A DNA stretch of 64,000 nucleotides from an uncultured Alphaproteobacteria bacterium (GTDB taxonomy: Bacteria > Pseudomonadota > Alphaproteobacteria > Methylaequorales > Methylaequoraceae). The notes below the pieces were generated by a model. The model did no database searches and was not told where the DNA came from. It saw only the letters and a list, made by a program, of their open reading frames with translations. The position numbers and the translations under genes are program-made. Position 1 is the first letter of the stretch. Each line of letters starts with the position of its first letter. Positions 2,808-26,316 of the stretch are shown here, one piece after another. The DNA lies in assembly GCA_902563505.1 (NCBI GenBank), contig CACEXK010000005.1, forward strand, positions 6,636 to 70,635, read 5' to 3'.

Positions 2808-4262
2808 TTAAACATTCAAACTCTGAATTTTCATCATCCTTCTTCTTATTGAGGAAGAGGGGATGTTAAGTAACTCTCTATATTTTGCTACTGTTCTTCT
2901 AGCTAAATTTATTCCCTCTGACTGGAGTTTAGTTACAAGAATTTCATCACTAAAGGGACAATTTATTGGTTCATTAGTGATTAATCTTTTCAGAGATTCT
3001 CTTACTGAGGCTGCTGAATGACTCTCTCCTTTAATAGTTCCACTAATTGATGCGCTGAAGAATAACTTCATTTCAAAAATCCCCCTAGGAGTCAGCATTA
3101 ATTTGTCAGTAGTAACCCGACTGACAGTACTCTCGTGCATGTCTATTTTTTTTGCAACATCTTTCAGGATCATTGGTTTAAGATATTTTTTTCCTTTTTC
3201 AAAAAATAGTTTTTGTTGATTTACAATTTCTGCACTGATTTTGAGTGTGGTTAAATTTCTTTGTTGTATTGCTTTCATCAACCATTTGGCTGAATTAAGG
3301 TTTTCTGTAATAAATTTTTTATCAGAATCAGAACAATTTAATTTCTCAATTTCTTTAACATATTCTTCATTTACAGTAACTTTTGGTAATGTGCTATCGT
3401 TTAATTCAACTTCCCAATTACCATTGTTTTTTGAAACTATAATGTCTGGGTTAAAGATATTGGTATTTTCATCAGAGTACTTGGTACCAGGTTTTGGGTT
3501 AAGTAATCTTATCAATCTAATATTTTCGCGAAGTTGATCCTCTTTTAAATTAGTTTTTTTCTGAAGTTCTTTAAGATTTCCGTTTCCAAGAAGCTCTAAA
3601 TTTTCTATGATTAATTTTCGCTCATCTGTTAATTTTTCTTCATTCAATAATTGAATCATGAGGCATTCCTTTAAATTTCTAGCAAAAACTCCATTTGGAT
3701 CAAATTTTTGCATTCTCAAAAGAACTTCTTCAATTTTAGTTTTTTCATAACCACTGAATGAAGAGATTTCATCTAAATCGTTGGTGATCCATCCATTAGG
3801 GTCAATATAATCAATAAGTATTTCTGCAATATTTTTTTCTTTTGTATCAGAGAATTCTAAATCAGCTTGACTTCTTAGGATAGATTTAAGGGATAACTTT
3901 TCACTCAGTGTTTGTTCGACTACAGACCCCGGGTCAATTGAATCATTATTTGAAGACTTGTTGTATGTATTATAAGTTGGATCTAAATCCCATCTATTTT
4001 CATAATCATCATTTTTTGGTTCATCTTTAAGAGATTCACCTGTTTCAAACGAATCATTAAGATCATTAGTATTTTCATCAAACTCCTCAGAATTTTCCTC
4101 ACTACTCTGATTTTCAAGAAAGGGATTTTCCTCAAGTTCTTTATTTACAAGATCAGTTAATTCTAAATTATTGAGTTGGAGAAGTTTTATCGCTTGCTGA
4201 AGTTGTGGGGTCATCACAAGTGACTGGCTTTGCTTTAATTTTAAATTCTGAGTAATTTGCAT
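2808..4262 (-). CDS. rpoN: RNA polymerase sigma-54 factor
   Basis: N-terminal QSQSLVMTPQLQQAIKLLQL, MHESTVSRV HTH, RpoN box ARRTVAKYRE. Confidence 0.98.
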   Translation of the reverse strand: MQITQNLKLKQSQSLVMTPQLQQAIKLLQLNNLELTDLVNKELEENPFLENQSSEENSEEFDENTNDLNDSFETGESLKDEPKNDDYENRWDLDPTYNTYNKSSNNDSIDPGSVVEQTLSEKLSLKSILRSQADLEFSDTKEKNIAEILIDYIDPNGWITNDLDEISSFSGYEKTKIEEVLLRMQKFDPNGVFARNLKECLMIQLLNEEKLTDERKLIIENLELLGNGNLKELQKKTNLKEDQLRENIRLIRLLNPKPGTKYSDENTNIFNPDIIVSKNNGNWEVELNDSTLPKVTVNEEYVKEIEKLNCSDSDKKFITENLNSAKWLMKAIQQRNLTTLKISAEIVNQQKLFFEKGKKYLKPMILKDVAKKIDMHESTVSRVTTDKLMLTPRGIFEMKLFFSASISGTIKGESHSAASVRESLKRLITNEPINCPFSDEILVTKLQSEGINLARRTVAKYRELLNIPSSSIRRRMMKIQSLNV

Positions 4263-4443: not shown

Positions 4444-4986
4444 ATGTTAAAAATAATTCCATTGATAATTATTCCTTTATTTTTTTTTATTATTTTTCTT
4501 GGTGTTGAAAACCTGACACAAATTTCTGATGCAAAAAAAGAAAATATAAGAAGTGAATTAGAGAAATTAGATCAAAAAGATGATTTTTTAGAAAAAACCG
4601 CTGAAAATATCCAAGTAACCAATAAAGTAAGTCCAGATGAGAATAAAGATGAAGGAATAATCGTCAAGGAAACTAAAAATAACAAAGACTTAAAAAAAGA
4701 TCAAGAGGCTAAAAAGTTAAAAAATCCTCCTAAGGCAATTAAAAAACCTATAAAAATTAAGATGCAATTTGGGGCATTCAAAAAAAAAGATTATGCAAAT
4801 TCTTCAAAACAATCGATCGAAAAAAAAATAAAACAAAAATTCCCTGATTTTTCAATTATTGTAAATTTTGATAATAAAAAAAATCTTTACAAATTAATTC
4901 ATTTTTCTGAGGATTTAAGCATTGCTAAAGAAGTGTGTGAATTTAGTAAAAAGAAAAAAATAGGTTGTCTAATAGTCAAAAAATGA
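4444..4986 (+). CDS. Membrane-anchored SPOR-domain-like protein
   Basis: N-terminal TM helix, charged linker, C-terminal MQFGAF...LYKL...AKEVC...GCLIVK pattern. Confidence 0.6.
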   Translation: MLKIIPLIIIPLFFFIIFLGVENLTQISDAKKENIRSELEKLDQKDDFLEKTAENIQVTNKVSPDENKDEGIIVKETKNNKDLKKDQEAKKLKNPPKAIKKPIKIKMQFGAFKKKDYANSSKQSIEKKIKQKFPDFSIIVNFDNKKNLYKLIHFSEDLSIAKEVCEFSKKKKIGCLIVKK

Positions 4987-5183
4987 AAAATTGCAGAATA
5001 TGTATTATAATTAGATTTTTTTTGGCTAGTGTTTTGTTATTAATAATAATTGGTTTGTCAATGACAGATAATTTACATTATTTATCTTATGTAACATCCT
5101 GGAATGCTGCAATTTTAGTTTTGGTTCTTGGTGTTATAATTTTTCTGGTGAGATTTTTCGAATACTTAAAGACAAAAGATTAA
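4983..5183 (+). CDS. Small two-helix membrane protein
   Basis: ATG at 4983 overlaps the upstream TGA (ATGA); two hydrophobic stretches; CxxC near the N-terminus. Confidence 0.6.
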   Translation: MKNCRICIIIRFFLASVLLLIIIGLSMTDNLHYLSYVTSWNAAILVLVLGVIIFLVRFFEYLKTKD

Positions 5184-5653
5184 CGATCTCTCAGGAATCT
5201 TACAAATAATTTTTTTTCTGGGACAAATCTCCCGTAAGAGTGACCAGTGAAAAAATTAACAGACCAAAAAAATTTGGGTGACCACCAATTTCTCTGTGAA
5301 GTCCAAAATGGCTCAGCTGGAGTATCTGGAAAAAACTCTAAATTAATTTTTACTTCACTACATTTTTTGCAAACTAAACTTTCTAACTCTTTTCTTTTAG
5401 GAAGTCTCCATTTTCCTTCCAATTGCTCATTTATAATTCTATTTGCTTCTTTAATCTCATTTAGATCGAGTTTTACTGGTTGACCGATACATTTTTCTTG
5501 TTTATCACTCCATTGTTGACCAGCAGAACATTTAAGCCATTCAACTTTATTCCTTAAATCTATCACATAATATCCCCTATCAATAAAATCAGCAGAAATT
5601 GCTGATTTTATGTAAAAGGATATAAAAATTACTATAAAAACTAAAAATTTCAT
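5180..5653 (-). CDS. DUF1566 (Lcl C-terminal) domain exported protein
   Basis: Signal peptide, WLKCSAGQQW, WRLPKRKELESL, FPDTPAEPFWTS, WSVNFFTG motifs. Confidence 0.8.
   Translation of the reverse strand: MKFLVFIVIFISFYIKSAISADFIDRGYYVIDLRNKVEWLKCSAGQQWSDKQEKCIGQPVKLDLNEIKEANRIINEQLEGKWRLPKRKELESLVCKKCSEVKINLEFFPDTPAEPFWTSQRNWWSPKFFWSVNFFTGHSYGRFVPEKKLFVRFLRDR
5583..5611. repeat. 12-bp perfect inverted repeat with a 5-nt loop
   Basis: ATAAAATCAGCA-GAAAT-TGCTGATTTTAT. Confidence 0.7.
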
Positions 5654-5709: not shown

Positions 5710-5725
5710 TGGTATTAAAGTTGCA
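5710..5725 (+). promoter_or_regulatory. sigma54 (-24/-12) promoter of motAB
   Basis: TGGTATTAAAGTTGCA, correct spacing, 56 nt before the motA ATG. Confidence 0.8.
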
Positions 5726-5781: not shown

Positions 5782-6549
5782 ATGGATTTAGCTTCTTTAA
5801 TTGGTTTTTTAGGTACAATAGGGATGATTGCTGGAGCAATGATTTCAGCAGGTGGATTAGGGATGTATATTGATGTTCCTTCTATATTAATTGTTTTTGG
5901 AGGTTCCTTTTTTGCAGTAATGTATACAGCTCCATTACCTACTTATTTAGGCGCGTGGGGCGCATTTGGTAAAGCTTTTAAACCACCAGTTAAAAAAATG
6001 GATGAATTAATAACTAGAATTGTTGAGCTCGCCGGTATTGCTAGAAAAGATGGTATGATGGCACTTGAGGGACAAGAAACCCCAGACCCTTTCTTTGATA
6101 ATGGTCTTCAGATGCTTGTCGATGGAGCTGATGAAGCCAAACTAACTGTTCAATTAAAAAAAGAACTAGCAGCTATGCAAGTTCGTCATAAATCTATGAT
6201 AGGAGTTGCACAATCTTGGGTTGACATAGCACCTGCAATGGGAATGATTGGAACTCTCGTTGGTTTGGTAGCAATGTTAGGAAATATGGCTGACCCAAAA
6301 GCAATTGGTCCTGCAATGGCTGTTGCTCTATTGACTACACTCTACGGAGCAATGATCGCAAACACTATCTTTACACCTATAGTAATTAAACTCAAGGGTT
6401 ATGACGCTTACGAAACAACTTACAGAGAAATGATTATTACTGGATTGCAATTTATTTCTAGAGGTGAAAGCCCAAGAAATATCCAAGATCAGCTCATAGC
6501 TAACCTTCCACCAAAAGAAAAACAAGCATTGATTGAATCTGAAGCTTAA
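5782..6549 (+). CDS. motA: Flagellar stator A subunit, short PomA-like type
   Basis: MDLASLIG start; ARKDGMMALE; APAMGMIGTLVGLVAML; IGPAMAVALLTTLYGA; 255 aa. Confidence 0.97.
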   Translation: MDLASLIGFLGTIGMIAGAMISAGGLGMYIDVPSILIVFGGSFFAVMYTAPLPTYLGAWGAFGKAFKPPVKKMDELITRIVELAGIARKDGMMALEGQETPDPFFDNGLQMLVDGADEAKLTVQLKKELAAMQVRHKSMIGVAQSWVDIAPAMGMIGTLVGLVAMLGNMADPKAIGPAMAVALLTTLYGAMIANTIFTPIVIKLKGYDAYETTYREMIITGLQFISRGESPRNIQDQLIANLPPKEKQALIESEA

Positions 6550-6558
6550 AGGTAAAGT

Positions 6559-7737
6559 ATGGCTGAAGAAAAAAAAGAAAAAAAAGAAGAGGCAGTTGCT
6601 GCCGAAGAAGAAGAACACGAGTGTGAGGAGTGTCCTCCAAAGGGAGCGCCTGCATGGATGGCAACATTTGCTGATATGGCCACCCTTTTAATGGCTTTCT
6701 TCGTTTTGATTCTTTCTTTTGCTGAATTTAATGTCCCAAAATTTAAACAAATTAGTGGTAGTATGAAAAATGCCTTTGGTATTCAAAGAGTTATACCAAC
6801 AGTTGAACAACCCAAAGGCACAACAATGCTAACACTGAATTTTAGTCCCAATCCAACTCCATCTGTAACAGATAATAATCAACAGCAAACAACTGAAACG
6901 GATCAAAAAGAAGTAGAACTCAAAACAAAAGATAATGATGCTACTAAGGACGACGGGGAAAATGAGGATGCTAAAGAATTAGCTCAAAACATTAAAGATG
7001 CTGTTTCACAAGGTGATTCAGATGTACAAGTTGAAACTGTTGGAGATAAAGTTGTTGTAAACTTTGACCCTCAAGAAACAGATGAAAAAGAAATGCAGGA
7101 GGCAGTCCAAGCCATTGAATCAATTAAAGCAGCCTCAGGAAAATCAGATACGGAAGTTCTGTTTGGGGGTGTAGAAAAACAATTAGCGCAATTATCAACC
7201 GCATCCAACAAGCAAGGTAAAGGCGAAGCTGATTCTAATGAAGGTAATGATATTGGGTCATCTCCAGATACCTCAAAGGATGAAGAAAGAAAAGCAAAAA
7301 TAGCCGAGGACAAGTTTAAAGTAGCTTTAAAAGAAGAAATGGGTGAAGGATTAATTGATATTGAGAGAAACGAAGATAAAGTAATAATTACTGTTGGCTC
7401 AGGAGGAGCATTTAAATCAGGTTCAGCCGATTTGACTACAAAGGCAAAAAAGATTATGGCAAAAATTGCAGAGGTTAATGAAAAAGGTAGAAGTGAAATT
7501 TTAGTATCTGGTCATACTGATAATAAACCATTAACATTTGGTTCGATTTATAGAGATAATTGGGATCTTGCTGCTGCAAGGTCGTCATCAGTGGTACAGG
7601 AACTGTCCGGAACAGGAAAATTAAAACCAGATAGAATGAAAGCAATTAGCTATGGAGAAACTCAACCAGTTGCAGACAATAAATCTTCTGAAGGAAGAGA
7701 AAAAAATAGAAGAATTGAAATTGAAATTAATTATTAA
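6559..7737 (+). CDS. motB: Flagellar stator B subunit, PomB-like, with OmpA-like PG-binding domain
   Basis: ECPPKGAPAWMATFADMATLLMAFFVLILSF TM with the essential Asp; GHTDN, NWDLAAARS, NRRIEI. Confidence 0.96.
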   Translation: MAEEKKEKKEEAVAAEEEEHECEECPPKGAPAWMATFADMATLLMAFFVLILSFAEFNVPKFKQISGSMKNAFGIQRVIPTVEQPKGTTMLTLNFSPNPTPSVTDNNQQQTTETDQKEVELKTKDNDATKDDGENEDAKELAQNIKDAVSQGDSDVQVETVGDKVVVNFDPQETDEKEMQEAVQAIESIKAASGKSDTEVLFGGVEKQLAQLSTASNKQGKGEADSNEGNDIGSSPDTSKDEERKAKIAEDKFKVALKEEMGEGLIDIERNEDKVIITVGSGGAFKSGSADLTTKAKKIMAKIAEVNEKGRSEILVSGHTDNKPLTFGSIYRDNWDLAAARSSSVVQELSGTGKLKPDRMKAISYGETQPVADNKSSEGREKNRRIEIEINY

Positions 7738-7743
7738 AATCTC

Positions 7744-8586
7744 ATGATTATTCAAAACAGCCCATTTTATAAGCCAAACCATTCTGTCAAGATAGTAGAT
7801 GAGGTAACTAAAAACATACCATTGGAAAATAAAAAAGAAACACAAGAGCTTAATGAAGAAGGGTTTTCTTTTTGGAAGTGGTTCAAAGGACTTGTTAACC
7901 CACTTCAAAATTTACCTTTAATTAGTGGAATATATTCCAGTGTGAATGCCGAGGATAAAAACTCAGATAGAGATTTAGTGCAAAATAGTCTTGGCGGTTT
8001 TTTGTATGGTGGACCAATTGGAGCTATTGCAGGTTTTGGCAACTGGGTTTTTAATAAGATTTTTGACAAGACTCCGACTGAATTGGCTTTGGATGCCTCT
8101 GGTATAAGTGATATTTGGAAAGATAATGATGAAAAAAAAGAGAATGTTATTGCCAAATCAGAGCAACCAGTAATTAGAGGAAATGAAAAAAGACTTTATT
8201 TACAAATGACCAGTAGTAATGATTTCTTAAAGAATTCAAAAAAAGATAAATTAAATTTAGAAAATAATTCGAACGAAAAATTAGCAAATCTTGATAATTC
8301 TATGGATTTAAAAAATGAAATAAAAAAAGATTTTATTTTGTCAAAAGAAAAAAAGATTGATCCAATAATTGTTTCAAAAAAGTTAGTTGAACCTGATTTA
8401 AAAAATAAATTTGTAAAATCCTCTAATGAGGAAGCGTTTAGAGAGATTAATTTTGATTATCCTGCTTGGAAACCAGAAAATTTGGAGATCTTAGGTAATA
8501 AAAGAGATCTAAAAAACTCAAAACTTAAGTATATGGATTTAGAAAAAAATAATTCCAAAGAATCATTTTATAATATAGATGCCTAA
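7744..8586 (+). CDS. Conserved hypothetical protein downstream of motB
   Basis: 280-aa ORF 6 nt after motB; core VNPLQNLPLISGIY...LGGFLYGGPIGAIAG; charged tail. Confidence 0.7.
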   Translation: MIIQNSPFYKPNHSVKIVDEVTKNIPLENKKETQELNEEGFSFWKWFKGLVNPLQNLPLISGIYSSVNAEDKNSDRDLVQNSLGGFLYGGPIGAIAGFGNWVFNKIFDKTPTELALDASGISDIWKDNDEKKENVIAKSEQPVIRGNEKRLYLQMTSSNDFLKNSKKDKLNLENNSNEKLANLDNSMDLKNEIKKDFILSKEKKIDPIIVSKKLVEPDLKNKFVKSSNEEAFREINFDYPAWKPENLEILGNKRDLKNSKLKYMDLEKNNSKESFYNIDA

Positions 8587-9186
8587 CTAGACAATTGGAT
8601 CCAGTTCTTCTGATTTATATTTTTCAAAAAATTCTGATCCTAGAATATTCTTAACTTTCTCCATGGTCATTTCTGAAATTTGTCCACCATAATTTTCATA
8701 ATATTCCTCGCACTTTCTTGAAGCAGCACTGGCGACACCCTGAGTTATAAACTCATTTTCAACAGCTGTTCTGGCTCTTGTTGTGGCTTCAGATTTTGCT
8801 TTAGTTAATCTTCCCATCGCTGAATTTTTTTTTCTATTGAGATCATCCACAACTTCCATTAGTTGTTTATATGTTGGATCCGGAACATTTAGATTAATAA
8901 ATTGTCCGTCAACATCATAATCAAAGTTTATTTCATCAATTTGCTCTGTAAGAATTTCGATATGGTCAGTGTTAAATACTAACAATTGAAGTTTGTGTGG
9001 GTCATCCGTTTTTTTTAAATCTGCGATGTCCACAAGCCTTCTTGGCTTACCTTGGATATTGATTCTGATGTTTTTGATTATAGTTAGGTTTGCATCAGTA
9101 GATTTAACATCTTTAAGAACTTCAGCATAGTCTTCTACAGCTGCTTTCATTAAGTTTTCAGCTTGGTCAGAATATTTTTCAGCCAT
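8587..9186 (-). CDS. Divergent ribosome recycling factor (RRF)-like paralog lacking RRF signature residues
   Basis: Aligns by eye over nearly its full length to recalled E. coli RRF with about two small indels; RTGRA, PPLTEERR and RNVRR are replaced by KSTDA, PDPTYKQL and TKAKS. Confidence 0.75.
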   Translation of the reverse strand: MAEKYSDQAENLMKAAVEDYAEVLKDVKSTDANLTIIKNIRINIQGKPRRLVDIADLKKTDDPHKLQLLVFNTDHIEILTEQIDEINFDYDVDGQFINLNVPDPTYKQLMEVVDDLNRKKNSAMGRLTKAKSEATTRARTAVENEFITQGVASAASRKCEEYYENYGGQISEMTMEKVKNILGSEFFEKYKSEELDPIV

Positions 9187-9219
9187 TTAAATTACCTTCT
9201 AAATATTTTTTATTTTAAT

Positions 9220-10005
9220 TTACACTAAAGCTTCTTTATTTTCACTAACAATGTTTTGATTTTCTTCTTTAGTTTCAACTTCTTTTTTTGAATCATCTTC
9301 AATGATAGGATCTTCGAGCCTTGAATACATAAACCTTGATTTGGGATCAAGCATTCTAATAATCTTATGAGCTTCATCCATCGACTTTGCAGCAAGTTTC
9401 ATTGAAAAAACCTTTCCCTCAAGCATAGAAAAGCTATATAAAAGGTTTAGTTGTGCCTGATAGCAGTAAAGTGATGTTAGAACCCAACCTAATAAGAACA
9501 TGTAAACATTTACAGCTAAAAGTAGTCCACTCATATTTAAGAAGAGAAAAAGCACCCACCACTTTTTTGAATAAGATAACCACAATGGCGGAAATAAACC
9601 AGCAGAAAGAGCTTTAGAATTTTCATGAATATCGTATCTTCTGTAAACATCTCTCATTGCTACATAATCTTTTAACTGGTCTAAATCAAAATTTTCTTTA
9701 GAAGAAAAACTCTTTTTTATATTCTCAGTTTCTTCAACATTTGTTGTTAAAAATTTACATCCAAGACTTCCAGTAATAATTATATCAAAAAATACATTAT
9801 CTCTAAGCACAGTTAAAATTGCTTTCTGGTTATCTTTCTTGAGTTCTCTTAGTTCCTCAGTCAGTCTTTTTTCGCCATAAATATAAAAGTCATTATTTAT
9901 AGCAACAATTACATCATCGGGTTTTAACATAAGAGAGGAGGCATAGCTTCCTTTTCTAATCTTATCAATTTTTATTAAGAAATTATTTTCCTTATTTTCT
10001 GACAT
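9220..10005 (-). CDS. PDZ-like domain fused to a DUF2628-like membrane domain
   Basis: IDKIRKGSYASSLMLKPDDVIVAINN matches the PDZ core pattern; LFPPLWLSYSKKWWVLF...LLGWVL hydrophobic DUF2628-like block. Confidence 0.6.
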   Translation of the reverse strand: MSENKENNFLIKIDKIRKGSYASSLMLKPDDVIVAINNDFYIYGEKRLTEELRELKKDNQKAILTVLRDNVFFDIIITGSLGCKFLTTNVEETENIKKSFSSKENFDLDQLKDYVAMRDVYRRYDIHENSKALSAGLFPPLWLSYSKKWWVLFLFLNMSGLLLAVNVYMFLLGWVLTSLYCYQAQLNLLYSFSMLEGKVFSMKLAAKSMDEAHKIIRMLDPKSRFMYSRLEDPIIEDDSKKEVETKEENQNIVSENKEALV

Positions 10006-10010
10006 TGGAC

Positions 10011-10736
10011 TTAAGGAAAGGTAATGCTTTCTTTTTGATCTGTAATTTCTCTAACAAGAAGTTTATTTTGACTTGAAATAGCTTCAAGTGCAGCGTTTAA
10101 TGACGATGTACTATTTGACAATTCCTTCAATAATTTTGTATTTTGATTTTTCTTATTAGCTTCAATCATTTTCCCTAATTCTTTATTTAATTTTGCAGAT
10201 GTTACTACTCCTGACTCAGCAATTGATTTACCTAATTTATCAGATTCTTCTTTGATAGACTGCGAAAGACCATTTGATAGATTAGAAATTTCTTTTGACA
10301 GATTAACCATTAGATTCTTATCATTAGCTTTTATTGCATCGGATAATTCTATTAAGGCATCCTGAATCTTGGTATTTGCGCTAACTAAATCACTATGATT
10401 TGCCAAGCTTGAATTCATATTTTCTACTGCCTTATTTACATTTTCAACATTTTCTGCAAACACGACAAGCGCTTCTCTGCTTGTATTAGTCATATCTTCT
10501 AGTTCAGACAATGATTTAAAATAAAGTAGACCTGTTAGAATTATTGCTATTACAGCTGTAGCTATTGAGCTGGAAAAAACAATAGTTGTATATTTATGTA
10601 TCTCTTTCACTTTTTGCTCCGCTTTAATATGTTCATTTTTGATTCTTTTATATTCTGATGTTACATCTGTTGCAGCATCAGCGGCATCTAAAGCAATTTT
10701 AATGCTTTCTTGCATTGCATTAATTTGTTGGTTCAT
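10011..10736 (-). CDS. Single-TM coiled-coil protein of unknown function
   Basis: N-terminal helix IALDAADAA, TM at about aa 50-73, long heptad-rich C-terminal region. Confidence 0.7.
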   Translation of the reverse strand: MNQQINAMQESIKIALDAADAATDVTSEYKRIKNEHIKAEQKVKEIHKYTTIVFSSSIATAVIAIILTGLLYFKSLSELEDMTNTSREALVVFAENVENVNKAVENMNSSLANHSDLVSANTKIQDALIELSDAIKANDKNLMVNLSKEISNLSNGLSQSIKEESDKLGKSIAESGVVTSAKLNKELGKMIEANKKNQNTKLLKELSNSTSSLNAALEAISSQNKLLVREITDQKESITFP

Positions 10737-10936
10737 GCAAGTCTTCCTTTTTTTTTTGTAATATTAACATTTTTTTCTTTTTTTTGAAATAGTGCACAAT
10801 TTATGCCAGAAATTGATTTTACTTCCAAATAAGGATTTTTTTTTGAAATTATACCAAATGCTCTACAACCATAGGGAAATCTTTGCTTGTAGGTCACATA
10901 GAAATGCAAACATTTATTGCATGCCGTATTATTCAT
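10733..10936 (-). CDS. Small four-cysteine putative metal-binding protein
   Basis: C6-x2-C9...C24...C47 (CNKCLHFYVTY..FPYGCRAFG...SGINC); ATGA overlaps at both ends. Confidence 0.7.
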   Translation of the reverse strand: MNNTACNKCLHFYVTYKQRFPYGCRAFGIISKKNPYLEVKSISGINCALFQKKEKNVNITKKKGRLA

Positions 10937-11145
10937 TTAATTCTCTTCTCTTTAATTTTTTTAACAAACTTTGCAATTTGAAATCTTATAGCCCCAAGAA
11001 AAGAAGTTAAAGCACAAAACCAAAGAAAAATTGCTAAGAGAATTTCTTCACTTTTTAAAAGTTCTAATGCTTTAAAATGGCAAACTATCGCACTGTAGAA
11101 AAAAGCAAAAGTAACAATTAATTGTGAAAAATTTCTATTGAACAT
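10933..11145 (-). CDS. Small two-helix membrane protein
   Basis: Likely ATG at 11145 (alternatives 11157, 11166), overlapping the flhB end; two hydrophobic helices and a basic tail. Confidence 0.6.
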   Translation of the reverse strand: MFNRNFSQLIVTFAFFYSAIVCHFKALELLKSEEILLAIFLWFCALTSFLGAIRFQIAKFVKKIKEKRIK

Positions 11146-12289
11146 TCTGTTTTCCATTTTCGTCAAAAATTAAATCCTCGGGAACCTCGATTTCTGGTTT
11201 TTCAATTTCTTCTCCATTATTAACTTTATAAATATAAGCAAGAGCTATAGCAACAGCATTATAAAGTTTGCTTAGAATTTCATCACCAATTTCACATGTA
11301 AAATATAATGCTCTTGCAAGTATTGGACTTCTCATATTGCCAATATTCAATTTTTTAGCCTTATCTATAATTAATTCTGCATTCTTACCTCTTCCTTTTG
11401 CCACTATTACAGGTGCATTTGAATCTCCAACTTCATATTTAAGAGCTACAGCAAAATGTGTGGGGTTTGTAATAATAGCAGTTGCTTCGTTTAGATTATC
11501 AATTGACGAAGTTTCTTTTCTGGTTTTAGAAGCTGCCGCCATTTGTAGTTTTCTTATTTTATTTTTTACTTCTGGTTGTCCATCTGTATCTTTGTACTCA
11601 TCTTTTATGTCTTGATGAGACATTCTTAAAGATTTGATATAATCATACTTTTGCCATGCAAAGTCTAAAGCAGCTATAAAAAAAAGAACAACAAGTAGAG
11701 CAATGACTAAGATTGGAAAGAATGATACAAGTCTATTTAATGCTGAAAATAAGTTTGCTTCACTTATATGCACTAAATCCGGCAAATATTTAATAAATAC
11801 AAAATAACCAACAATACCTAAAAAAAAGACTTTTATTAGAGCTTTTACTAATTCAACGAGACCTTTTGTAGAAAATATTCTTTTTAGACCAGTTATTGGA
11901 TTCATCTTTGAGGCTTTCCAATGTATTGCTTTAAAGGAAAAATTTAATCCATCTCCCATCAAAAATTGAGAGATTATACAAATAAAAATCAATGGTGTAG
12001 AAAAAATCACTGTTACCTTTATAACAAAATTTATTGCAACTGCTATTGAAGCTATAGGTGAACGACCAGCAACAAGTTCAGGGCCAAAACTAAAAAATGA
12101 TTGAGTTATTTTTAAGAAGTCTTCAATCAAGGGAGGGAAAACATACATCAAAATAACTCCAACTGTTAAAATGGTAAATACTTGGACTTCTTTTGAAGTT
12201 ACGACTTTACCATCTTCTCGTGCTTTTTGAATTCTCCTGGATGTCGGGTCCTGGGTCTTTTCCTGACTTTCGTCTTTATCTTCTGCCAT
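11135..12289 (-). CDS. flhB: Flagellar export switch protein FlhB
   Basis: EKTQDPTSRRIQKAREDG, NPTH autocleavage site, LARALY. Confidence 0.97.
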   Translation of the reverse strand: MAEDKDESQEKTQDPTSRRIQKAREDGKVVTSKEVQVFTILTVGVILMYVFPPLIEDFLKITQSFFSFGPELVAGRSPIASIAVAINFVIKVTVIFSTPLIFICIISQFLMGDGLNFSFKAIHWKASKMNPITGLKRIFSTKGLVELVKALIKVFFLGIVGYFVFIKYLPDLVHISEANLFSALNRLVSFFPILVIALLVVLFFIAALDFAWQKYDYIKSLRMSHQDIKDEYKDTDGQPEVKNKIRKLQMAAASKTRKETSSIDNLNEATAIITNPTHFAVALKYEVGDSNAPVIVAKGRGKNAELIIDKAKKLNIGNMRSPILARALYFTCEIGDEILSKLYNAVAIALAYIYKVNNGEEIEKPEIEVPEDLIFDENGKQNVQ

Positions 12290-13111
12290 TTAAATACCTG
12301 AAATAAAAAGTGTTTCTATTGATTCAAGTGAGTTTTTTGTTAACTCAGCAAATCCATTACCAATTGTCCTTGTTGATAAATAAAGAACAAAAAATGCTAA
12401 AAGAAGAGTTACCGGAAAAGCAAATGAAAACATATTTAATTGAGGTGAAGATCTGGTGATTACACCAATGGCAATATTTGCCATTAAAAGAGCTCCAACT
12501 ACAGGTAACATAATAAGTCCTCCTGTATAAAACATTGCTCCAGCAGCTTCAATACCCAAACCTACAAGTTGAAATGGTGGTAATTGACCATCAATTTTAT
12601 ATATATCAAAGCTTTTGATCAAAAAATCTATTGCAATAAGATGTCCATTGAGAGATAAGAAAATTGTTATTAAAAATAGATCTAGAATAATACTTACAAC
12701 TGGTGTTTGTCCTCCAGTTTCAGGATCCACCATCTGAGAAAAACCTAGTCCAGTTGAGGATGCCATTTTCTCTCCTGCAATTGTTGCTGCACTGAACCAT
12801 ATACTTAAGGTAAGACCCAATGAGATGCCGATAATCAGTTCAACAATAATAATAGAAAAAATATTTTCGATCACATATGTTGTAATGCTTGTTTCAGAAA
12901 TATAACCAAAATAAAAAAATGAAATTACCATCGCAAAAACAATTTTTGCATTTAATGGAATATTTTTTGAACCAAGAAATGGGCTTGAAATTAAAAATGC
13001 GGAGAGTCTTAAAGATGATAAAAAGAACGCAAACAAATATTCGATCAGAGAATTTAACTCTAAGCCAGGCAAGCTATTCATAGTTGAATAGAAGGGCAGG
13101 GGAATAAACAT
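12290..13111 (-). CDS. fliR: Flagellar export protein FliR
   Basis: Multi-TM; GLGFSQMVDP, LNGHL, RSSPQLNMFSFAFP. Confidence 0.95.
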   Translation of the reverse strand: MFIPLPFYSTMNSLPGLELNSLIEYLFAFFLSSLRLSAFLISSPFLGSKNIPLNAKIVFAMVISFFYFGYISETSITTYVIENIFSIIIVELIIGISLGLTLSIWFSAATIAGEKMASSTGLGFSQMVDPETGGQTPVVSIILDLFLITIFLSLNGHLIAIDFLIKSFDIYKIDGQLPPFQLVGLGIEAAGAMFYTGGLIMLPVVGALLMANIAIGVITRSSPQLNMFSFAFPVTLLLAFFVLYLSTRTIGNGFAELTKNSLESIETLFISGI

Positions 13112-13377
13112 TATTTTATTCCTGAAATAGTATCAAAGATGAATTCAAAATAGTCAGTCAAGCTTACTAGAAAGAAATTTGCAAATATACCCATTGCAAA
13201 GATTACCAATACAATTTTTGGAACAAAACTAAGTGTCATCTCTTGAATTGATGTTGCAGCTTGAACAATTCCAATTATAAGACCGATAGCTAGTGCTGCA
13301 CCAAGAAATGGGCCACTTGAAATTAAAACTTGATAAAAAGCTAATCTTACCATTTCTACATTTTCATCAAATCCCAT
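13111..13377 (-). CDS. fliQ: Flagellar export protein FliQ
   Basis: IGIVQAATSIQEMTLSFVPK. Confidence 0.97.
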   Translation of the reverse strand: MGFDENVEMVRLAFYQVLISSGPFLGAALAIGLIIGIVQAATSIQEMTLSFVPKIVLVIFAMGIFANFFLVSLTDYFEFIFDTISGIK

Positions 13378-13392
13378 CTTATCACCTCATTT

Positions 13393-14139
13393 TTAAGAAA
13401 AAGTTCCAACTAAAGATCCAACAGTCATTGACCATCCATCAACTAGTACAAAAAGTAAAAGTTTAAACGGAAGAGCAATTAACATTGGTGAAAGCATCAT
13501 CATCCCCAGAGACATTAGAACTGAAGCAACAACCATATCAATAACTAAAAAAGGTAAGAAAAGTAAAAAACCAATTTGAAAAGCAGTCTTCAACTCGCTT
13601 GTCATATATGCTGGAAGCACAATGTAGAAGGGTATTTGAGAATTATCAACGAAGTTTCCTTTTTCAGCCATATCTGCAAACATCAATAGATCATTTTTTC
13701 TTGTATTTCTTATCATGAACTCTTTCAATTCTCCGCCGCCAGTTTGAATTGCCTCATCCAATTTCATCTCACCATTTTGGTAAGGTCCTGAAACTGAAGA
13801 ATAAATTTTGTCGAATGTTGGAGCCATAACAAAAAAAGTCAAAAATAAAGAAATAGCAATTAATATTTGATTAGGTGGTGTTTGCTGAGTCCCTAAAGCT
13901 TGTCTGAGTATTGACATCACAATTATTATTCTTGTAAATGCAGTCATTCCCAAAACTAAAGATGGTAAAATTGTTAATGCTGTCATTAAAGCTAAAATTT
14001 TTAATGAAATGGAATATGTTTTTTCTCCATTAGCTGACTCAGATATTGTAAGAGCTTCCAATCCACTCGGTGCAGTTTGTGCTAAAATAAGTGTTGGAAA
14101 AACAATTAAAAAGGAAAAAACTAAGCTAAACTTTTTCAT
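13393..14139 (-). CDS. fliP: Flagellar export protein FliP
   Basis: TAFTRIIIVMSILRQALGTQQTPPNQ, SELKTAFQIGF, LPFKLLLFVLVDGW. Confidence 0.98.
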   Translation of the reverse strand: MKKFSLVFSFLIVFPTLILAQTAPSGLEALTISESANGEKTYSISLKILALMTALTILPSLVLGMTAFTRIIIVMSILRQALGTQQTPPNQILIAISLFLTFFVMAPTFDKIYSSVSGPYQNGEMKLDEAIQTGGGELKEFMIRNTRKNDLLMFADMAEKGNFVDNSQIPFYIVLPAYMTSELKTAFQIGFLLFLPFLVIDMVVASVLMSLGMMMLSPMLIALPFKLLLFVLVDGWSMTVGSLVGTFS

Positions 14140-14455
14140 TGCTCAGCCTTTTCTCAAAAACTTTATCTAGATTTGTAGTTTTTACTTTATTCTGAGTTTT
14201 AATTTCTGTTAGTAAAGCTCCAGAGTTTTTTCCAGAAATAAAAAGAAAATCTTTTTCATCCAGGTTAAGAATTAAAGCTCTATCACCTTGACCCAACATC
14301 GTGACTTCCGAGACTTTCATTCTCCTTTTCGAATTTAACTTTTTTGTTATTACATGCTTATTTTTTTTTAAATAGTAAAAACCTATAAACATGACAAATA
14401 AGAAACCCAAAACAACCATATAATTGGCTAAACTTGGTCCTGTATATTCTTGCAT
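14126..14455 (-). CDS. fliO: Flagellar protein FliO
   Basis: One N-terminal TM plus MKVSEVTMLGQGDRALIL; located between fliN and fliP. Confidence 0.8.
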   Translation of the reverse strand: MQEYTGPSLANYMVVLGFLFVMFIGFYYLKKNKHVITKKLNSKRRMKVSEVTMLGQGDRALILNLDEKDFLFISGKNSGALLTEIKTQNKVKTTNLDKVFEKRLSNEKV

Positions 14456-14484: not shown

Positions 14485-14500
14485 TGCAAGAACCTTGCCG
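14485..14500 (-). promoter_or_regulatory. sigma54 (-24/-12) promoter of fliOPQR-flhB and the tail genes
   Basis: Minus strand CGGCAAGGTTCTTGCA, correct spacing. Confidence 0.75.
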
Positions 14501-16003: not shown

Positions 16004-16642
16004 TTATTGTAATACAAACGATGTGAAATGTACATTTTCAACTCCACCGAAACCTTCAACTTTAACTAATGTTTCATTGATACCTTCTTTTAAAGCATCT
16101 GCAAGTTTTTGTTTTCCCTCTCTACCTGCAATATCCTCTGGAGAGAAAGTAGACATAATTGTTAATATTTCCGATCTCAAAGCTAACTGATGACTATCAA
16201 CATTTTCCATAACAGTTTCATCGTATTGTGTTGAAACACCAACTGAGATCTGTAAAAATCTTTTAGATCCCTTAAGATTTGTAGTGAAATTTCCTGGAAA
16301 TTCATAGTAGGTTGTAGCGAAGATTTCTTCTTCAGGAGTTATTTTAGGAATTTTTTTTGGACCTACGGGGCAGTTACCTTCTGCATCCTTCTCTTCTTCA
16401 GCACATTCTTCGGCAACTTCTCCAGAATCCGCAGATTCTTCATCTTCCTTATTTTTTGATTCAGGATTTTCTTTTTTTTCTATTATTTGAGATATTTCTG
16501 TTGATGGATCTGAAGATTCTCCTCCGCCAACAAGAATACCAATACCAAGGCCTGCGCCAAGTAATACTATTCCTCCGACAATCATTAAGATGAGTTTTAT
16601 AGGACTCTTTTTCCCATTTTCTTCATTATTTTCTTCAGCCAT
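16004..16642 (-). CDS. fliL: Flagellar basal body protein FliL
   Basis: Single TM; FTTNLKGSKRFLQISVGV; NVHFTSFVLQ. Confidence 0.92.
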   Translation of the reverse strand: MAEENNEENGKKSPIKLILMIVGGIVLLGAGLGIGILVGGGESSDPSTEISQIIEKKENPESKNKEDEESADSGEVAEECAEEEKDAEGNCPVGPKKIPKITPEEEIFATTYYEFPGNFTTNLKGSKRFLQISVGVSTQYDETVMENVDSHQLALRSEILTIMSTFSPEDIAGREGKQKLADALKEGINETLVKVEGFGGVENVHFTSFVLQ

Positions 16643-18069: not shown

Positions 18070-18085
18070 TGCAATAATAGTGCCA
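18070..18085 (-). promoter_or_regulatory. sigma54 (-24/-12) promoter of fliKLMN
   Basis: Minus strand TGGCACTATTATTGCA, full consensus. Confidence 0.9.
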
Positions 18086-25095: not shown

Positions 25096-25111
25096 AGCAA
25101 GAAGCTTACCA
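25096..25111 (-). promoter_or_regulatory. sigma54 (-24/-12) promoter of fleT-fliEFGHIJ
   Basis: Minus strand TGGTAAGCTTCTTGCT, correct spacing. Confidence 0.8.
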
Positions 25112-25205
25112 AATTGTTTTATTTTTTTTATTTTTTTTTAAAAATCATTAAAATCAATTACTTACGAAAGACATTTCAAATTTTTATTTTTTTAAATTTC
25201 CTTAT

Positions 25206-25221
25206 TGTCATTTTTCTGACA
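25206..25221. promoter_or_regulatory. Palindromic FleQ-box-like operator between fleT and fleQ
   Basis: TGTCATTTTTCTGACA (TGTCA-N6-TGACA). Confidence 0.65.
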
Positions 25222-25242
25222 TTATTTTTATTGTATTTATGT

Positions 25243-26316
25243 ATGACTGAGATAATTAAAGGAAGTTGCGATGCAACTAAGCAGTTAAGAAAACTAGTAG
25301 AGATGGTTTCCGTCTCTGGGTCAACTGTTTTACTAAGAGGTGAAACCGGTTGTGGAAAAGATGTTGTTGCTCGAGCTATTCATGATCAATCAAAAAGAAA
25401 AGGGGATTTAATTAATGTTAATTGTGCTGCAATACCATCAGAACTATTAGAATCTGAATTGTTTGGTCACGAAAAGGGAGCTTTTACAGGAGCCGACTCA
25501 AAAAGAGAAGGAAGATTTGAAGCCTCAAATAATGGTACTCTCTTTTTAGATGAAATTGGCGATATGCCTCTTTCTCTTCAAGCAAAATTATTGAGGGCTA
25601 TAGAAACAAGAAAAATCCAGAGGGTTGGTGGAAAAGGTGAAATAAATTTAGATCTAAGATTGATTTGTGCAACTCATCAGAATATAGAAAAAAAGATTGA
25701 AGAGGGATTATTTAGAGCTGACCTTTTTTATAGAATTAATGTTTTTCCAATTGAGATCCCTACACTGTCTGAGAGAAAAGATGATATCCCAGAATTAATT
25801 GAACATATTTTAAGTGAAATTGAAACAAGTGGCTCTAAAATTCCATTATTTGAAGATTCAGCAATTTCAGCATTAAAAGAATATATATGGCCGGGAAATG
25901 TAAGAGAACTTAGAAATGTAATTGAAAGGTCAACAATAATTTTTTCAAATAAAAAAATAAATGCAAAAAATATAAGAGAAAATTTACTTAAAATTAATCT
26001 TCCTGATTTTAAAGAAGAAAAGAAAATTATCTGGGATATGACATCAGAACTTGCAGATATAAATGAAGAAAAAGAAAATGATGATTCAAATGAAATATCA
26101 ATGCCTCATCCCAATCACTATAAAAAATGGTTTGAGTATCTTGACCAAATTGATTTGAGAAGACACTTGGGGGAGGTTGAATATATTCTTATTGAAGGTG
26201 CACTGAGAAAGTCAAGTGGATCAGTTACAGAAGCATCTAAAAGTCTAAAAATAAATAGAACTACTCTGATTGAAAAAATGAAAAAATACTCAATACCAAA
26301 AGTAGGGAATGACTAA
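25243..26316 (+). CDS. fleQ: Flagellar master regulator FleQ-like sigma54 activator without an N-terminal regulatory domain
   Basis: Likely start MTEIIKGSC at 25243; GETGCGKD, GAFTGA, WPGNVRELRN; C-terminal IDLRRHLGEVE...INRTTLIEKMKKY HTH typical of FleQ. Confidence 0.85.
   Translation: MTEIIKGSCDATKQLRKLVEMVSVSGSTVLLRGETGCGKDVVARAIHDQSKRKGDLINVNCAAIPSELLESELFGHEKGAFTGADSKREGRFEASNNGTLFLDEIGDMPLSLQAKLLRAIETRKIQRVGGKGEINLDLRLICATHQNIEKKIEEGLFRADLFYRINVFPIEIPTLSERKDDIPELIEHILSEIETSGSKIPLFEDSAISALKEYIWPGNVRELRNVIERSTIIFSNKKINAKNIRENLLKINLPDFKEEKKIIWDMTSELADINEEKENDDSNEISMPHPNHYKKWFEYLDQIDLRRHLGEVEYILIEGALRKSSGSVTEASKSLKINRTTLIEKMKKYSIPKVGND

Follow-up and report, generated by a model that had tools for sequence, protein, structure and literature searches.

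A probable MotF gene with three conserved companions behind flhB, and a family-specific ribosome recycling factor paralogue, in a marine alphaproteobacterial flagellar island

The flagellar island of an uncultured marine alphaproteobacterium raises the question whether five genes that directly follow flhB, here termed g1 to g5, form one accessory device, and whether any of their products is already known. The genes lie on a 64,000-nucleotide (nt) stretch of contig CACEXK010000005.1, which was analysed as a whole and is called the window; its source assembly comprises 1.27 Mb at 29% GC and is 87% complete. While a first-pass annotation of the same sequence had taken the five genes as a single undescribed module, the results point to two layers of different age. 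Probably, g1–g4 are a conserved, MotF-centred gene set that closes the fliOPQR-flhB region of Fla1-type flagella at its 3′ end, and g5 is a family-specific duplicate of the ribosome recycling factor (RRF) that was added later.

Layout and conservation of the genes behind flhB

The island is bounded by rpoN (2808-4262) and a fleQ-like activator gene (25114-26316). Its gene order, with a fleT-like activator, fliEFGHIJ, fliK, fliL, fliMN, fliOPQR, and flhB, and with motAB convergent to them, agrees with that of Fla1 in Rhodobacter sphaeroides, a system under sigma-54 control (PMC7277832), and flhA of the source genome was found on a separate contig (G000:C9). On the minus strand, the export-gate genes fliO, fliP, fliQ, and fliR (12290-14455; Pfam FliP, Bac_export_3, and Bac_export_1 on orthologues) precede flhB (11135-12289; Pfam Bac_export_2, E 3.5e-100; TIGR00328, 343 bits). 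Next on this strand come g1 (10933-11145), encoding a 70-aa miniprotein with a hairpin of two transmembrane (TM) segments; g2 (10733-10936), encoding a 67-aa soluble Cys4 miniprotein with a basic tail; g3 (10011-10736), encoding a 241-aa bitopic inner-membrane protein assigned to the MotF family; g4 (9220-10005), encoding a 261-aa protein with a PDZ domain and a hydrophobic helical hairpin; and g5 (8587-9186), encoding a 199-aa diverged RRF paralogue.

The open reading frame (ORF) coordinates confirmed the earlier description of this arrangement to the base: flhB and g1 overlap by 11 nt, g1/g2 and g2/g3 share 4-nt ATGA overlaps, 5 nt lie between g3 and g4, and 33 nt lie between g4 and g5. The earlier protein descriptions likewise held by hydrophobicity, alignment, AlphaFold2 (AF2) models with Foldseek, and Pfam. 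In detail, two hydrophobic segments were found in g1, one in g3 (about residues 50-75), one 33-residue stretch in g4 (149-181), and none in g2 and g5. The start of g1 was set to the ATG that gives 70 aa; an alternative TTG lies at 11166, but every orthologue begins with MF/MI-N-R-N. As had been stated before, no terminator-like site was found on the minus strand between 7500 and 18500, and scans for sigma-70-like promoters and terminators gave matches no commoner than chance, as judged from shuffled sequences.

All five genes are conserved coding genes rather than chance ORFs. The relatives that form the family of the window are metagenome-assembled genomes (MAGs) and single-cell genomes, including "alpha proteobacterium MED-G10", "Rickettsiales bacterium MED715", AG-349-G10, and LRMED-288. 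At all 17 orthologous loci from about 13 genera, the order fliK-fliL-fliMNOPQR-flhB-g1-g2-g3-g4-g5 was kept and was followed by convergent orf280-motB-motA. Identities to the window proteins were 73-88% for g3, 60-84% for g5, 54-74% for g1, 54-78% for g2, and 45-69% for g4, next to 62-79% for FlhB and 76-89% for FliM; the five are therefore real genes under purifying selection, with g3 conserved on a par with FliM and FliP. Because the entire rpoN-to-fliK region is collinear in the family, in-family synteny alone is no proof of a functional link. Seven of the eight family genomes checked contained flhA, and the one without it is only 68% complete, while G006, G010, and G011, which carry flhA without flhB, g3, and g5, are thus regarded as incomplete assemblies and not as non-flagellated members.

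Comparisons beyond the family were made in a class sample of 400 alphaproteobacterial genomes, in which flhB was ranked by E value and the tail genes were searched by profile. The g4 profile detected homologues in five other families, and the g3 profile added a sixth. In every case, the loci showed fliL-fliM-fliN-fliO-fliP-fliQ-fliR-flhB followed by four genes whose products are, in this order, of the two-TM (about 73 aa), Cys4 (62-82 aa), bitopic (237-286 aa), and PDZ type (235-303 aa). At least 13 further lineages, with identities of 20-40%, kept the order flhB-g1-g2-g3-g4; the carriers include the isolate IMCC14465 and Ca. Micropelagos (PS1 clade), a Rhodobiaceae MAG, Rhizobiales TMED83, and Plastorhodobacter. 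The gene after g4 differs by lineage, being motB, adh_short/purF (L073), fliD (L082), or rpoN (L068), indicating that the module is linked to flhB and travels with it.

The same sample showed to which type of flagellum g1–g4 belong. Exactly those five genomes outside the family whose flhB scored E < 1e-70 carry the tail; in the next flhB tier (35-42% identity) the tail was not found, and unrelated genes follow flhB in four such loci. In the class sample, g1–g4 are thus restricted to the sigma-54 "Fla1"-type flhB, and in all carriers examined, whether close or remote, they kept their synteny with one another and with flhB. The refutation test that the first-pass annotation had set for the module was thereby survived by g1–g4. 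In contrast, g5 was missing from all the g1–g4 carriers examined outside the family, and it is therefore not an integral part of a five-gene device.

The g3 family, its relation to MotF, and its companions

Position, size, topology, and a family member in the Rhodobacteraceae together argue that g3 is very probably the orthologue of R. sphaeroides MotF (RSP_0067), so the earlier statement that none of the five is a known flagellar component does not hold for g3. MotF of R. sphaeroides is a 24 kDa protein with a TM segment at residues 54-74 and a periplasmic C-terminal part, which is needed together with FliL for rotation via MotAB, is recruited through FlgT, and can be bypassed by MotB plug mutations (PMC7277832). 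With a single TM segment predicted at about residues 50-75 in 241 aa, and an orientation known from prediction only, g3 fits the published size and TM position. Consecutive locus tags in R. sphaeroides run from RSP_0058 (fliK) to RSP_0065 (fliR), RSP_0066 (flhB), and RSP_0067 (motF), and RSP_0067 responds like other fla1 genes, that is, it is co-regulated with them (PMC9779115). In the window and in all carriers, g3 is the third gene 3′ of flhB. The gene of the published functional partner of MotF, fliL, lies at 16004-16642 on the minus strand of the window (Pfam FliL, E 2.2e-21).

The bridge to the Rhodobacteraceae is provided by Plastorhodobacter daqingensis, in which WP_377400556.1, annotated as "hypothetical protein", scored 119.8 bits with the g3 profile. 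It is encoded in a fliOPQR-flhB-g1-g2-g3-g4 locus with rpoN, fliC, motAB, and fliD close by; a word-index search from this protein returned only itself and one other protein. An exhaustive search with the g3 profile retrieved 366 representatives of clusters at 50% identity, 204 of them at E < 1e-10. The family shares an N-terminal helix, predicted to be cytoplasmic, of the form (E/D)-S-I-K-x-A-L-D-A-A-x-A-A-x-D-V-T-x-E with an invariant LDAAxAAxDxTxE, a T-x-S-x-E-A-L-V-x-F-A-E-N segment just beyond the TM segment, and a C-terminal (I/F)-x-(F/Y)-P, which reads ITFP in the window protein after a helical region predicted to be periplasmic. No covering entry for the family was found in Pfam, NCBIfam, or the PDB. 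The PDB matches obtained with g3, to apolipoproteins and designed helical bundles, are compositional and were rejected as homology.

The genes g1, g2, and g4 accompany g3 in every lineage examined, and no description of them was found in the searchable literature. The g1 protein has basic ends and an invariant Arg54 after its second TM segment. In g2, four Cys residues (C6, C9, C24, and C47; C-x2-C-x14-C-x22-C) are invariant in 22 sequences, and its AF2 model, of moderate confidence (predicted local distance difference test, pLDDT, 72), shows a small three-stranded sheet and a helix, for which Foldseek, a PDB sequence search, and Pfam all returned no match. The g2 C-terminus reads -G-R/I-L/F-A in 8 of 13 lineages, the other five ending otherwise; that the g4 PDZ domain might bind it is only a guess.

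The AF2 model of g4, built on a 13-sequence alignment, reached a pLDDT of 85.2 (about 90 over residues 11-90) and a predicted TM-score (pTM) of 0.75. It consists of a PDZ domain (about 11-87), a beta hairpin, two short hydrophobic helices (149-183), and a small C-terminal alpha/beta domain, an architecture that is specific to the Fla1-type flagellar context. The N-terminal domain matched PDZ domains of Nas2, RseP, and GRASP in Foldseek (probability 1.0, target TM-score 0.6-0.7), while the Pfam PDZ scores stay below gathering (PDZ_6, E 0.27 for the window protein; E 0.001 for the best of 13 members). DUF2628 is a weak match, with 16 bits for the window protein against a gathering threshold of 23, and with E values down to 1.8e-4 in 3 of 13 members. 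As no signal peptide precedes it, the PDZ domain would be cytoplasmic under a hairpin topology. Binding of the MotF periplasmic C-terminus by this domain was considered and is ruled out if the hairpin topology applies, since the two would then lie on opposite sides of the membrane.

Most likely, g1, g2, and g4 are obligate companions of MotF that form a small inner-membrane complex with its N-terminal helix. In this model, the transcript that begins at the fliO sigma-54 promoter would supply g1 and g2 along with the export-gate proteins, MotF would insert beside FliL and the stator and aid the release of the MotB plug as published for R. sphaeroides, and g1, g2, and g4 would bind the invariant cytoplasmic MotF helix or each other and so position or regulate MotF at the stator, with g2 as a predicted cytoplasmic Cys4 metal-binding miniprotein.

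Sigma-54 sites of the tail and the RRF-fold gene g5

The tail had been assumed to ride on the fliO promoter without an internal sigma-54 promoter. The first part of this assumption gained support, as the pattern scan identified a sigma-54-type promoter, CGGCAAGGTTCTTGC, in the fliN-fliO gap (14486-14500, minus strand), where the fliOPQR-flhB-g1-g2 transcript would start, and a site of the same form occupies the fliN-fliO position in 15 of 15 orthologous and distant loci tested. The second part was not confirmed, because a candidate internal promoter, TGGCATAAATTGTGCA, was found inside g2 (10808-10793, minus strand), within the codons for S-G-I-N-C-A. It has GG-N10-GC spacing with 2 mismatches to the TGGCAC/TTGC context, and the candidate start lies about 45 nt upstream of the g3 ATG.

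The site was at first taken as a by-product of the protein motif, an assumption that was dropped when the constraint on synonymous positions became apparent. The synonymous positions of T GGC A.. ... TGT GCA are fixed in 20 of 21 loci that range from 29% to 68% GC, and the fixed codons oppose genome usage: GGC makes up 9% of Gly codons in the source genome at 29% GC, while in the Plastorhodobacter contig (68% GC) ACT, TGT, and GCA make up 3%, 19%, and 8% of their codon families, respectively. The only lineage without the embedded GG...GC site is L082 (L082:2349-2537, G192-type), where the Gly and Ala of S-G-x-x-C-A are replaced too, suggesting that the promoter and not the protein keeps those two residues. 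As judged from this nucleotide pattern, the internal site probably drives g3–g5, so that MotF, g4, and g5 would be transcribed additionally or mainly from within g2. The dependence of the tail on the fliO promoter would then be partial. In a 2012 study of MotF, motF reportedly leads a separate predicted transcription unit that also holds two hypothetical genes.

Further sigma-54-type sites detected by the same scan lie before fliK (perfect, TGGCACTATTATTGC; 18071-18085, minus strand), before the fleT-like gene (25097-25111, minus strand), and, on the plus strand, before motA (5710-5724; sigma-54-like), before a short ORF downstream of the rpoN 3′ end (2493-2507), and before the gene at 1867 (1840-1854).

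The g5 protein is, by sequence comparison, an RRF-fold paralogue specific to the window's family. It matched Pfam RRF (PF01765) with 44.7 bits against a threshold of 29.7, residues 23-182 covering profile positions 4-164, and aligned at full length with the Aquifex RRF 1ge9 (E 8.8e-9). On the equivalog TIGR00496 it scored 31.4 bits and did not reach the cut-off of 149, and a canonical frr elsewhere in the source genome scored 217.8 bits on Pfam. The hinge motif of RRF and the basic residues of its helix 3 serve ribosome binding; in g5, compared with the genome's own frr, GLRTGRA is changed to VKSTDAN, EERR to YKQL, and IRNIRRDA to LTKAKSEA.

A third RRF-like gene, paralogue B (G000:C6:68843-69388; L033:10238-10828; L035:10200-10802), occurs in about half of the family genomes. 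It is 34-40% identical to g5 (40% within the source genome) and shares with it the invariants GKPRR, LVFNTDH, DGQF, and KAKSE..TRAR.A.ENEF. It belongs to a conserved gene group whose other products are a coiled-coil protein of 243-255 aa, a J-domain membrane protein, and a protein about 345 aa long; no flagellar annotation attaches to any of these. Neither g5 nor paralogue B was found outside the family in 396 and 253 class genomes.

At the end of the tail, g5 begins 33 nt behind g4, has AGAAGG as its ribosome-binding site, and is not set apart by a terminator; its stop codon lies directly against the stop of the motAB-orf280 operon. It would be a family-specific duplicate placed at the end of the MotF operon, next to convergent motAB (5782-7737, plus strand; Pfam MotA_ExbB, MotB_plug, and OmpA on orthologues). 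As an adjacent observation, the gene that follows motB, orf280 (7744-8586, plus strand), matched no known family, and its product includes a hydrophobic patch rich in Gly, GGFLYGGPIGAIAGFGNWVF. Conservation of orf280 is limited to the window's family (39-51% identity, partly 55-70%), and the gene is missing after motB in other lineages. As the stops of orf280 and g5 abut with 0 nt between them, the two convergent operons must overlap in transcription.

Weighing of the readings and comparison with known systems

Several points weigh against the assignment of g1–g4 to a MotF-centred unit with g5 as a later addition. The homology of g3 and RSP_0067 is inferred from position, size, topology, and a Rhodobacteraceae family member, and a review confines MotF to some Rhodobacteraceae (PMC7277832), which conflicts with the wide g3 family unless it reflects BLAST-level searches. 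All family members appear flagellated, so in-family co-occurrence is uninformative. The –12 element of the g2 site reads GTGC rather than TTGC, and the conservation of the site could in principle have another nucleotide-level cause. Physical contacts among g1–g4 are hypothetical, g4 may cross the membrane either as a hairpin or as a single span, and the link of g5 to the flagellum consists of position and co-direction, while its paralogue B lies among non-flagellar genes.

Some of these points would favour a role at the export gate, in which g3 represents a bitopic family of its own, unrelated to MotF, and the tail serves FlhB/FliPQR, for example as a co-translated assembly or gating adaptor. 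Such a role would suit the tight linkage to flhB rather than to motAB, the translational coupling of g1 and g2 to flhB, the indirect assignment of g3 to RSP_0067, and the restriction of MotF to the Rhodobacteraceae in the review (PMC7277832). We nevertheless consider it unlikely, because RSP_0067 likewise comes after flhB in a cluster of this type, a clear g3 family member takes that place in a Rhodobacteraceae genome, g3 matches published MotF in size and TM position, and a separate candidate promoter for g3 and g4 loosens the tie to the gate transcript. Less probable still is the device proposed in the first-pass annotation, in which the five proteins act as one sensor-effector unit, comprising a translation-factor mimic, a peptide binder, a sensor of metal or redox state, and a membrane scaffold, that couples the state of the export gate, or placement at the cell pole, to translation or to the state of the envelope. 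The operon arrangement, the four invariant Cys of g2, the PDZ fold of g4, and the RRF fold of g5 could be read in its favour; however, g5 has lost conserved RRF residues and, found in one family only as a late addition, can be no integral part, and the only protein of the five with a characterised function works at the stator. Published MotF work points to stator activation instead of to a coupling with translation.

It is also conceivable that some or all of the tail genes are passengers, kept beside flhB by the static gene order of streamlined genomes. The collinearity of the family from rpoN to fliK, which makes in-family synteny non-discriminating, and the non-flagellar setting of paralogue B would agree with this. 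For g1–g4, however, the genes stay behind flhB at 20-40% identity despite differing downstream neighbours, they are missing where flhB is of another type, their candidate promoters belong to the sigma-54 type, as do the window's other flagellar promoters, and RSP_0067 is co-regulated with the fla1 genes. Passengers throughout the tail are thus the least probable of these alternatives, while g5 alone may be a passenger. In the opposite direction, a bolder extension of the MotF-centred reading would hold that g5 left translation and became a dedicated flagellar-motor factor, co-expressed with MotF from the g2 promoter and acting on the cytoplasmic stator-rotor side, for example held by g4, or tuning the translation of motor proteins, and at the same time that g1, g2, and g4 are obligatory subunits of the MotF complex in all Fla1 flagella including that of R. 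sphaeroides. This combined proposal is tentative, and on balance we doubt it.

The MotF-centred reading therefore leaves the earlier notion of an undescribed accessory module standing in part. It holds for g1, g2, and g4; as the core g3 is very probably the described MotF, the module is not categorically new. New is the breadth of the MotF family, with its hundreds of clusters and no Pfam model, in place of what was treated as a curiosity of a few Rhodobacteraceae, and so is the fixed four-gene architecture in abundant marine bacteria (PS1, TMED83, and the window's family). The three companions may account for the opening of the MotB plug by MotF and FliL. The candidate sigma-54 promoter, embedded in codons and fixing the synonymous positions of a putative metal-ligand Cys, would be a case of dual coding. 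The RRF paralogue appended in one family kept its fold and lost the ribosome-binding signature; if its link to the motor is true, a translation factor would here have met a new fate.

Other genes near the stator operon were also recorded. A secreted Lcl_C-domain protein (PF07603, E 3e-19) is encoded at 5180-5653 on the minus strand, between motA and rpoN, and its gene stays beside motAB in every Fla1-type locus seen, including that of Plastorhodobacter. This gene is a candidate for a further conserved accessory gene of the flagellum. Between rpoN and this gene, the overlapping orf180 and orf72 (4444-5183, plus strand), the latter encoding a small membrane protein, are conserved in the family, and orf72 is recognisable in PS1-type loci too.

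Compared with ribosome recycling factor (frr; PF01765, TIGR00496), g5 matches the domain end to end, but its hinge lacks the GLRTGRA motif, its helix 3 lacks the basic residues of EERR and RNxRR, and its C-terminus is lengthened by an acidic stretch of 15 residues. The N-terminal domain of g4 superposes on the PDZ domains of RseP/S2P proteases, Nas2, and GRASP, and g4 has no protease or other catalytic domain; its hydrophobic hairpin resembles DUF2628 membrane proteins, with the Pfam score below threshold. The MotF of Sinorhizobium meliloti shares the name and a role in stator function, but that protein, about 145-190 aa long and with a globular domain in the periplasm, is paralogous to FliL (PMC9541039), and no FliL match was found in g3; the two are unrelated and present a name clash. 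With MotF of the R. (Cereibacter) sphaeroides Fla1 system (Ramirez-Cabrera et al. 2012, summarised in PMC7277832), in contrast, g3 has in common the bitopic form, a length of about 240 aa, a TM segment near residues 50-75, a large periplasmic C-terminal part, and a place after flhB in a fliKLMNOPQR-flhB cluster under fleQ, fleT, and rpoN control. The g3 family differs in that it extends far beyond the Rhodobacteraceae, to the PS1 clade, TMED83, and the small-genome family of the window, and in that g3 is always flanked by g1, g2, and g4.

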